A model generated the notes under the pieces. The model did not search any database, had not been told where the DNA came from, and saw only the letters and a program-made list of their open reading frames with translations. This document shows positions 28,161 to 52,538 of a stretch of DNA of 64,000 nt, one piece after another. Each line of letters begins with the position of its first letter. The first letter of the stretch is position 1. The stretch comes from a virus (taxonomy: Duplodnaviria > Heunggongvirae > Uroviricota > Caudoviricetes): positions 307,105 to 371,104 of the IMG/VR virus record IMGVR_UViG_3300042256_000013; one strand, 5' to 3'. The position numbers were made by a program, and so were the translations under genes.

Positions 28161-29066
28161 ATGGGAAAACCAATTGCTGGTCGTAATAAATCTCCATTCG
28201 GTGTAGATGGTATCAATGTAGATGCTGCTGTTTTATCCGATGGTACACAATTGACTAATGTTCGCATTAGCAAACAACGTTCCATCAACGTATTTGATCT
28301 AATCAGTACTGATGGTGCAACACTATATCCATTCGTAAAAATTACAGGTGTTGATGCAACAGGTGCAAACCTTTCTGTTGCTGATGATGCTGATACTTTA
28401 GCTGGTAAATTAGCTAACGGTACTTTCTGCATTAGTATTGTTGATACTGCTGGTGATGTTGTTGGATTTGCTATCCGTCTACTACTAAACAAAGTAGTTC
28501 TACAAGATGGTTCAGTACAATTCTTGACAGATTATACTGGTCAAGGAGATCTAACTGTAGACGTAACTGGTGTAACTCTTACTCCAGCTACTTTAGCATT
28601 GAATGCAGGTGCTACACAACAACTAACTACTGTTGTTGCTCCAACTGATGCAACTAATAAATCAGTAACTTATACTTCAAGTACTACATCTGTAGCTACT
28701 GTAAGTTCAACTGGATTAGTAACTGCTGTAGCTAACGGTTCTTCAACTATCACAGTAACAACTGTTGATGGTTCATTTACTGATACTACTGCTGTAACTG
28801 TAACTACTCCGATAGCTTCAGTAACTCTTGCACCAAGTACTGTAACATTAAGTCTAACTGGAACTACTACGCAACAACTAACCCCAACTATTGCTCCTGC
28901 AACTGCAAGTAACAAAGCTGTTTCTTACGTTTCAAGTGCACCGGGTGTTGCAACTGTTAGTGCTTCTGGATTAGTAACTGCTGTAGCTGCGGGTTCTGCT
29001 ACTATCACTGTAACAACAACTGATGGTTCACATACTGCTACTTCTGCTATTACTGTAAACGCATAA
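28161..29066 (+). CDS. Virion protein with two Ig-like (Big_2) domains
   Basis: Two repeats VTLxP...QQLT...APxxAxNKxVxYxSS...VATVSxxGLVTAV; TAAATA late promoter at 28116-28123; the only clear plus-strand gene. Confidence 0.85.
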   Translation: MGKPIAGRNKSPFGVDGINVDAAVLSDGTQLTNVRISKQRSINVFDLISTDGATLYPFVKITGVDATGANLSVADDADTLAGKLANGTFCISIVDTAGDVVGFAIRLLLNKVVLQDGSVQFLTDYTGQGDLTVDVTGVTLTPATLALNAGATQQLTTVVAPTDATNKSVTYTSSTTSVATVSSTGLVTAVANGSSTITVTTVDGSFTDTTAVTVTTPIASVTLAPSTVTLSLTGTTTQQLTPTIAPATASNKAVSYVSSAPGVATVSASGLVTAVAAGSATITVTTTDGSHTATSAITVNA

Positions 29067-51835: not shown

Positions 51836-51850
51836 TTACATCTCACTATT

Positions 51851-52033
51851 TGAATCAGTACTTAGCTGATTCACATTATACAAGGAGACTACTTCGTAGC
51901 CTCCAGTAAATCTCTTCTGAACTTCACTTACGTTACGTTCTTTTGAGATTTACGTTCTCTTACTTAAAATACGTTCAGTACTATTACTGACGAGATTTGT
52001 TTTGTATTTTCATCCCCCGCAGGGGAATGAAAA
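51851..52033. repeat. Cluster of five short inverted repeats
   Basis: TGAATCAG/CTGATTCA; GGAGACTAC/GTAGCCTCC; GTAAATCTC/GAGATTTAC; TCAGTA/TACTGA; TTTTCATCCCC/GGGGAATGAAAA. Confidence 0.8.
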
Positions 52034-52061
52034 CTGACGATGATAGTCTTAGTATTATTGT

Positions 52062-52491
52062 ATTGAGAATTACTTTGCAGTACGGAAGCGGGTTGGTCTA
52101 TTTCTTCCTATCTCAGTTCTCCAACGGTCGAGGTCTTAGCTCGCATAGTACTTGTCTATACAATCAAACGAAGTACTTGATGTTATCAAATTTTGGACGC
52201 AACTATATTGTACAAAATTAGATACATCTCCCTTATAAAGTATGGTAAGGTGTATCCTTATATGTCTATCTAGGAAGTACGTCATTATTGTAGTACTTCT
52301 TTATACAGCCGCATTGCCGTGAGTGGTACAAACTATGCCAACATCTAACGGGTTTCTTTTGCTGTTCGTACTGAATGAACTACTCAACTGATATTCTACT
52401 TTTCGATTATCAGGGTCAAAACTATCCTTGTTCTCAAGGTCATTCAGAGTTTTTCTCAATTAAAAAAAGGACGGTGCTCTCGCATCGTCCT
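52062..52491 (+). ncRNA. Candidate large structured non-coding RNA
   Basis: Nested stems including a closing stem 52062-52077/52445-52460; mismatches read as G-U only on the plus strand; no credible ORF. Confidence 0.5.
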
Positions 52492-52494
52492 ATA

Positions 52495-52534
52495 CATTAT
52501 AGCACAAAAATTTAAAACGTTTCACCGTTTTAAA
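52495..52534 (-). promoter_or_regulatory. Extended -10 promoter whose -35 region lies in a perfect 9-bp inverted repeat
   Basis: TTTAAAACG-GTGAAA-CGTTTTAAA-TTTTTGTGCTATAATG. Confidence 0.7.
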
Positions 52535-52538
52535 CACG

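Follow-up and report, generated by a model that had tools for sequence, protein, structure and literature searches.

The window, a stretch of 64,000 nucleotides, corresponds to bases 307105-371104 of a complete 371-kb phage genome, and the closest records to it are the Rak2-like jumbo phages CBB, Kaldavass, XbC2 and GAP32. The minus strand carries nearly all of its genes, the sole long plus-strand ORF (301 aa) being located at 28161-29066. As the first-pass annotation had noted, the feature studied here occupies the largest gene-free gap of the window; this gap measures 703 bp (51836-52538) and is flanked by hypothetical genes, with genes for a DNA adenine methyltransferase and a cytidyltransferase close by. 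A non-coding element of ~430 nt had been proposed for it, but the conserved unit turned out to be bigger, extending from about 51884 to 52524. According to sequence comparison, its copies share the order promoter, pseudoknotted RNA, repeat R2, optional terminator, G tract, repeat R1, AT-rich stretch and hairpins of the type favored in single-stranded DNA. The RNA, whose ends we infer to lie at 52490 and 52032 on the minus strand, would be ~460 nt long here and 382-539 nt across the family.

Several sequence features indicate that the RNA is transcribed from the minus strand. A phage-type promoter (52524-52496, minus strand) combines a non-sigma70 -35 box (52524-52519), a 17-nt spacer and an extended -10 element (52501-52496), and -10 and -35-like boxes are found at this end of the RNA in 80/80 copies. 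The genome has 37 promoters of this class on its minus strand, and in phage CBB the class sits upstream of DNA-synthesis genes (PMC5259590). The first-pass annotation had correctly recognized the minus-strand extended -10 promoter and the hairpin with a T7 run that follows it (52490-52462), but had interpreted it as a convergent promoter giving rise to a counter-transcript of ~30 nt; its position at the same end of all 80 copies identifies it as the promoter of the RNA itself. Beyond the far (RNA 3') end, a conserved plus-strand sigma70 consensus was seen in none of the 80 copies. G-U pairs, previously invoked in favor of a plus-strand RNA, point the other way: interior pairs that have Watson-Crick pairs on either side are G-U in 71 cases on the minus and in 2 on the plus strand. 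The unrestricted count of G-U versus A-C combinations only leaned to the minus strand (82:48), with some helix-end pairs being G-U on the plus strand, and it was the restriction to interior pairs that resolved the issue. Conserved unpaired positions are A-rich on the minus strand (38 A, 12 U), and the hairpin-U-runs of the copies face in the same direction as the minus-strand RNA. All of this speaks against an RNA that is antisense to the neighboring genes.

The earlier statement that the element folds best on the plus strand can be upheld in part. The window copy folds better than shuffled controls on both strands, with z scores of -5.1 (plus) and -3.2 (minus), and the minimum free energy (MFE) is lower on the plus strand in all five copies of the source genome; over the whole family, however, the preference is neutral (41/80). 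MFE is thus of no use in deciding on the strand, as it is neutral over the family and also blind to pseudoknots. Since the RNA runs on the minus strand, the hairpin at 52490-52462 (GAGA tetraloop and U7 run), formerly assigned to the 3' end, represents a 5'-terminal hairpin oriented in the same direction as the RNA. A hairpin plus U-run at this position occurs in 12/80 copies, mostly orthologues of the window locus, with differing stem sequences. It is best read as a putative promoter-proximal attenuator, and, being located just past the start, could cut most transcripts of this particular copy at ~30 nt.

The fold of the RNA was derived by mutual information (MI/APC) on 63 copies with a mean identity of 60%. 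In another alignment, which comprised 56 non-redundant copies, the 17 helices with their 71 pairs are paired in 92.7% of cases and 61 of the 71 pairs show double changes; 0/500 shuffles reach the observed pairing, which falls to 35-41% in a partner-sliding control, although these figures are not probabilities because the structure had been deduced from an overlapping set of sequences and kinship plays no role in the shuffle. Of the 17 helices, six cross others (52447-40/52378-71, 52314-12/52264-62, 52287-85/52238-36, 52164-58/52063-57, 52115-11/52068-64 and 52108-04/52088-84). The first of them defines the 5' pseudoknot (52447-52368), in which the loop (52378-52371) of hairpin 52383-81/52370-68 is engaged by 52447-52440 (81.7% and 100% of cells paired). 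The central domain (52365-52262), supported by mutual information and covariation, consists of stem 52365-61/52309-05 with two conserved purine-rich junctions, the tertiary helix 52314-12/52264-62 and a hairpin at 52299-52274; the junctions presumably resemble the T-loop pair of RNase P. A kissing-loop helix (52287-85/52238-36, spanning 52287-52236) has double changes in 3/3 pairs and is 86% paired. In the 3' multi-pseudoknot domain (52177-52057), comprising 52164-58/52063-57, 52125-21/52096-92, 52115-11/52068-64, 52108-04/52088-84 and the hairpin 52081-52072, 97-100% of cells are paired and nearly every pair shows double changes. Many of the unpaired bases are invariant.

All contiguous stem arms that had been listed for the element are present at their positions, and the fold indeed covaries among homologues, though not in the outer stems that had been drawn. 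Covariation was found for the local stems 52092-96/52121-25, 52129-31/52141-43, 52147-55/52168-77, 52274-79/52294-99 and 52371-78/52440-47. The outer stems 52072-77/52445-50 and 52077-85/52365-73, on the other hand, remain at shuffle level (36.7% versus 36.5% paired, reached in 235/500 shuffles), and the proposed closing stem 52062-69/52453-60 lacks covariation as well; the strands of the outer stems pair elsewhere, within the pseudoknots. One conserved hairpin module is located in the stem at 52189-52219 in some copies and in that at 52072-52081 in others, sometimes in both, and is possibly a movable protein- or RNA-docking motif.

A search against Rfam 15, including ROOL, GOLLD, OLE and HEARO, gave no match at gathering score and merely chance-level hits at E values up to 10, in agreement with the RNase P and group II signatures reported missing before; ARAGORN likewise confirmed that the window is free of tmRNA and also of tRNA. 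Motif likeness had suggested hammerhead, group I, group II domain V, HDV-like and RNase P readings, which were dropped because the covarying partners do not fit; for RNase P RNA, the Rfam hit is missing and the order of covarying helices differs. A retron or other RNA linked to a reverse transcriptase was rejected, with no PF00078 match in the complete genome. The literature that we searched holds no description of the family, though fragments might be contained in the supplement of a catalogue of viral structured RNAs (PMC10690425). The notion of an undescribed large phage ncRNA is supported.

The 3' tail of the RNA, which is unpaired, contains the 10-11-nt motif R2 (52044-52034, minus strand), and a second version of it, R1 (51996-51987, minus strand), lies 47-100 nt downstream in the DNA, past the optional terminator and the G tract. 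The predicted partner of the single-stranded R2 segment is the template strand at R1, that is, the plus-strand complement of this repeat. Apart from one inserted base, the two repeats change jointly. When changes were counted on a tree for which only the RNA core was used, about 17 joint changes were obtained in total: one position changed 7 times in each repeat, on the same branch in 7/7 cases, four others underwent one joint change each, and the last changed 6-7 times, mostly jointly. No third column of the locus covaries with R2 and R1, and their partner is therefore not on the same strand. Mismatches between the repeats are always R2 G versus R1 A or R2 U versus R1 C and never the reverse, except at one tolerant position beside the insertion; 18 further copies left out of the alignment follow the same rule. 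Both combinations are wobble-compatible if R2 RNA pairs with the template strand, and the simplest reading of the two repeats would be an RNA-template clamp.

Between R2 and R1, a C-run/G-run hairpin (52028-52012, minus strand) ends in a conserved G5-G7 tract (52018-52014), a candidate site of hybrid nucleation, which precedes R1 in all copies listed. The genome has nine minus-strand G5+A[TA] sites, five of which are those of the five elements. The 45 nt past R1 have an AT content of 76% compared with 64% for the genome. Further downstream, the region 51953-51884 (minus strand) can form a long stem (51953-51906) followed by a stem with a cGAAg triloop (51904-51884); its DNA fold has a z score of -4.1 and is better on the minus strand, making it a candidate helicase or primosome loading site on a displaced strand. 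Downstream hairpins with C-GNA-G triloops or tandem GA pairs were seen on the RNA-like strand in 59/78 copies and on the other strand in none. Loops of this type are especially stable in single-stranded DNA. A hairpin followed by a U-run intervenes between R2 and the G tract in 33/80 copies, so that many transcripts may stop before R1.

The source genome contains exactly five copies, all on one strand, near 43, 129, 213, 297 and 359 kb. The gaps between them amount to 86, 84, 83, 62 and 55 kb, and a largest gap this small is expected for five random points with a probability of ~5 in 10,000 (about 5e-4). The spacing in relatives provides no independent tests because positions are inherited. 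In 63 phage records the element is matched at 3-5 places per record; five copies of common orientation are found in each of CBB, Kaldavass, Munch, Hallingskeid, XaC1 and EJP2, and three in RaK2, with one gap of 184 kb. A profile search found no copy in the PA5oct genome, whose ncRNA001 and ncRNA002 were rejected as homologues on comparison. Although the genes around the copy at 213 kb are on the opposite strand, this copy has the orientation of the others, and the element is therefore no leader of the gene that follows it. The five loci have no conserved protein gene next to them in common, and the copies are not sited in the tRNA region of the source genome. Analysis of GC skew, proposed earlier as a check for an origin, gave no shift at the five sites. 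The window copy is itself a mosaic: 52454-52300 and the downstream DNA match the Kaldavass orthologue (91-100%), and 52299-52035 is nearer to the ~43-kb paralogue (81-82% versus 54-74%), as is also the case in CBB, which points to gene conversion between copies.

The element is also present in bacteria: single copies were located in 2/5,426 E. coli genomes, in four genomes of other enterobacteria and in six contigs from metagenomes. A sample of about 550 enterobacterial genomes yielded no further copies, only one weak 31-nt match that was unconfirmed by the profile, and the island copies are therefore rare. Five bacterial islands and six metagenomic island contigs, all low in GC, have one copy each near an integrase gene, most of them together with a resolvase and defence genes. 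Members of this island family, found at several integration sites (records L112, 9248-19798, L114, L115, L116, L117, L126, L133, L135, L136, L154 and L155), contain the element and encode a tyrosine or large serine integrase, LprI, a resolvase and a 286-aa protein for which Pfam gives no hit, often along with a CI-like S24 repressor, and they have swappable defence cargo (Hachiman, DarT with glycohydrolase, nSTAND3, AbiGi or PDC-M45). Apart from the RNA, the island copies retain the phage-type promoter, the G tract and R1, and the five examined in full have the hairpins too; in one island an otherwise invariant base is changed in both R2 and R1. We take the islands to resemble phage satellites and phage-inducible defence islands such as PICI and PLE, as they are small, bear an integrase, carry defence cargo and have a promoter of the phage's class. 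Unlike PICI and PLE, these islands revealed no recognizable primase, initiator or capsid-hijack gene among the proteins scanned (a subset of ORFs). One upstream ORF gave a faint initiator-like match (PF14297, E 0.022), and one island has two ParB/RepB genes, both of which count against the origin model outlined below. On the tree the island copies fall in three places, which suggests repeated capture. The retention of the downstream DNA and of the phage promoter would suit a cis-acting, infection-triggered origin better than a free RNA.

Our best explanation of these findings, and one in which we place a little more trust than doubt, is that the locus may be one of five dispersed, co-oriented, RNA-primed R-loop replication origins; the primer-RNA replication origin that the first-pass annotation had offered as an alternative thereby gains support of the same degree. 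According to this model, a phage factor for this promoter class would direct RNA polymerase to the element such that the RNA is made mid-infection. The folded RNA would present R2, which could re-anneal to the template strand at R1 after the polymerase has opened the DNA, and the resulting clamp would hold the G-rich part hybridized, giving a persistent R-loop. RNase H, or the RNA itself, would then yield a 3'-OH primer for the phage polymerase, while the displaced strand would fold into GNA-triloop hairpins and load helicase and primase. How often each origin fires might be tuned by the optional hairpins with U-runs, which lie at the 5' end in the window copy and ahead of the G tract, past R2, elsewhere. 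Bacterial islands would have taken over the whole module with its phage promoter, and an excised defence island would accordingly replicate in infected cells only.

The origin model is favored because it accounts for spacing, orientation, promoter class, R2/R1 coupling, the G tract, the strand-specific hairpins and the islands. Counted against it are the terminators ahead of the G tract in 33/80 copies, the 5' attenuator of the window copy, the three-copy genome of RaK2, PA5oct without copies, the lack of a GC-skew shift, and a fold whose ornateness goes far beyond what is known to be required for ColE1 priming. The genome encodes a T4-type 5'-3' exonuclease, an RNase HI and a DnaB-type helicase (PF02739, PF00075 and PF03796, all over cut-off). 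At 159943-161322 of the genome, a promoter of the element's class is followed by three ORFs: one of 126 aa, one that looks dihydrofolate-reductase-like by eye and, as the third, the RNase HI gene, which is of bacterial type.

In ColE1, a 550-nt RNA enters into a persistent hybrid by means of rG/dC interaction; the primer is generated by RNase H, and helicase loading takes place on the displaced strand (PMC5043065, PMC4412123). The ColE1 sequence has one G6 inside the RNA and a second beside the origin, and the sole tandem-GA/GNA hairpin motif of the plasmid is located ~140 nt downstream on the same strand. The phage element corresponds to ColE1/pMB1 in the order of its parts and in having a promoter ~0.5 kb upstream (80/80 copies), a long folded RNA (as a predicted transcript), an upstream RNA segment that is repeated in the downstream DNA and, at the sequence level, able to pair with its template strand, a G tract, and strand-specific hairpins of the tandem-GA/GNA class downstream on the non-template strand; nor was an initiator protein recognized in the island copies of the element. 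There are differences as well: the predicted clamp is a mixed 10-11-nt sequence rather than G6, the fold includes six or more helices of pseudoknot or tertiary type, the element comes in five copies per genome with a phage-specific promoter, and a search for a conserved antisense promoter like that of RNA I, which covered plus-strand sigma70 consensus sequences downstream of the RNA, gave none (0/80). Searches of ColE1 and a plasmid collection by nhmmer, covariance model and blastn detected no homology to RNA II or its origin. Judging from this comparison, the element is not a ColE1 origin by homology, yet probably works like one. An 8-nt core of R1 is identical in ColE1 (1167-1180) just ahead of the origin-proximal G6, an observation made post hoc that may be due to chance.

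Phage T4 has at least five origins, the best studied of which are R-loops formed at middle promoters without shared sequence (PMC3016281). Genes for a phage RNase H and a replicative helicase are likewise present in the genome studied here, and the T4 middle promoter and AT-rich unwinding may be set beside a promoter class that precedes DNA-synthesis genes in CBB and the AT-rich DNA past R1. The T4 origins (oriA/C/E/F/G) differ in that they share no sequence motif and require ~100 bp but no structured RNA, whereas the copies of the element are all homologous, comprise ~640 bp and have a conserved RNA fold. In RaK2, the gene adjoining one copy is annotated rI.-1, and T4 oriC has been described near rI.-1 (PMC3016281), which is a weak coincidence.

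A rather unlikely alternative, though the one that survives best, is that of a free, trans-acting ornate RNA that serves as a scaffold, cage or decoy for host or phage proteins, with five copies ensuring dosage and the islands using it as a decoy or defence accessory. Like ROOL (RF03087) and GOLLD, which are phage-borne, pseudoknot-rich and without known function (PMC12286853), the element is large; it forms a stand-alone gene with its own promoter and often a terminator right past R2, its tertiary fold is elaborate and its island copies neighbor defence genes. Compared with ROOL and GOLLD, however, it is shorter, multi-copy, evenly spaced, outside the tRNA region and tied to a downstream DNA module. 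A free RNA leaves unexplained why R2 tracks a DNA repeat past the terminator with one-way wobble, why the single-stranded DNA hairpins are strand-specific and the copies evenly spaced, and why islands retain all of the downstream DNA.

We regard as improbable that the RNA is a ribozyme or guide RNA acting on its own locus, where R2 would be the target-binding strand, similar to the exon-binding site of an intron, and the core would cut RNA or nick DNA at R1, so that, with equally low probability, replication or recombination would start without RNase H. The six long-range pairings, the many invariant unpaired bases, the target-like pairing of R2 and R1 and the want of a conserved adjacent protein gene at the five loci would be in line with such a function; yet no Rfam ribozyme family matches, the helix order on inspection is unlike that of group I, group II, RNase P or HDV-like cores, the genome has no reverse transcriptase and the phage already encodes RNase H. 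A combination with the origin model, held to be no more probable, would be a catalytic or guide-bearing origin RNA that clamps the template via R2/R1 and makes or positions the primer end, with islands amplifying their anti-phage genes only during jumbo-phage infection.

That R1 and R2 might be iterons, binding sites in double-stranded DNA whose likeness is maintained by local conversion, with the module used for DNA positioning, packaging or recombination rather than priming, is considered very unlikely. The repeats are direct, gene conversion between copies is visible and T4 oriE has iterons (PMC3016281), but the repeats are a fixed one-base insertion apart and vary between loci of one genome, and a shared protein site does not predict some 17 recurrent single-base joint changes along with one-way mismatches. 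Finally, a plus-strand RNA antisense to its neighbors and controlled by a 30-nt counter-transcript is barely credible, as the lower plus-strand MFE of the five source-genome copies and a few helix-end G-U pairs are outweighed by the interior wobbles, the A-rich unpaired bases, the direction of promoter and U-runs, and outer stems devoid of covariation.

In the literature searched, we found no paper on where Rak2-like jumbo phages (about 350 kb, with a T4-like replisome) start replication. For each genome, the origin model names five candidate origins with precision, and at the level of single bases it predicts compensatory rescue between R2 and R1. If true, it would add to ColE1 RNA II a second structured pre-primer RNA, with no homology detectable between the two, and defence elements that borrow a phage origin would be seen in the island copies. 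If the origin reading is wrong, the element still stands as a large pseudoknotted RNA of an uncatalogued class, with good support for its structure. Two minor observations may be added: one copy in UE-S1 has an internal tandem duplication of the central domain, and among the 30 tRNAs of the source genome ARAGORN lists a possible amber suppressor with the anticodon CUA (labelled Pyl; genome positions 96039-96112).
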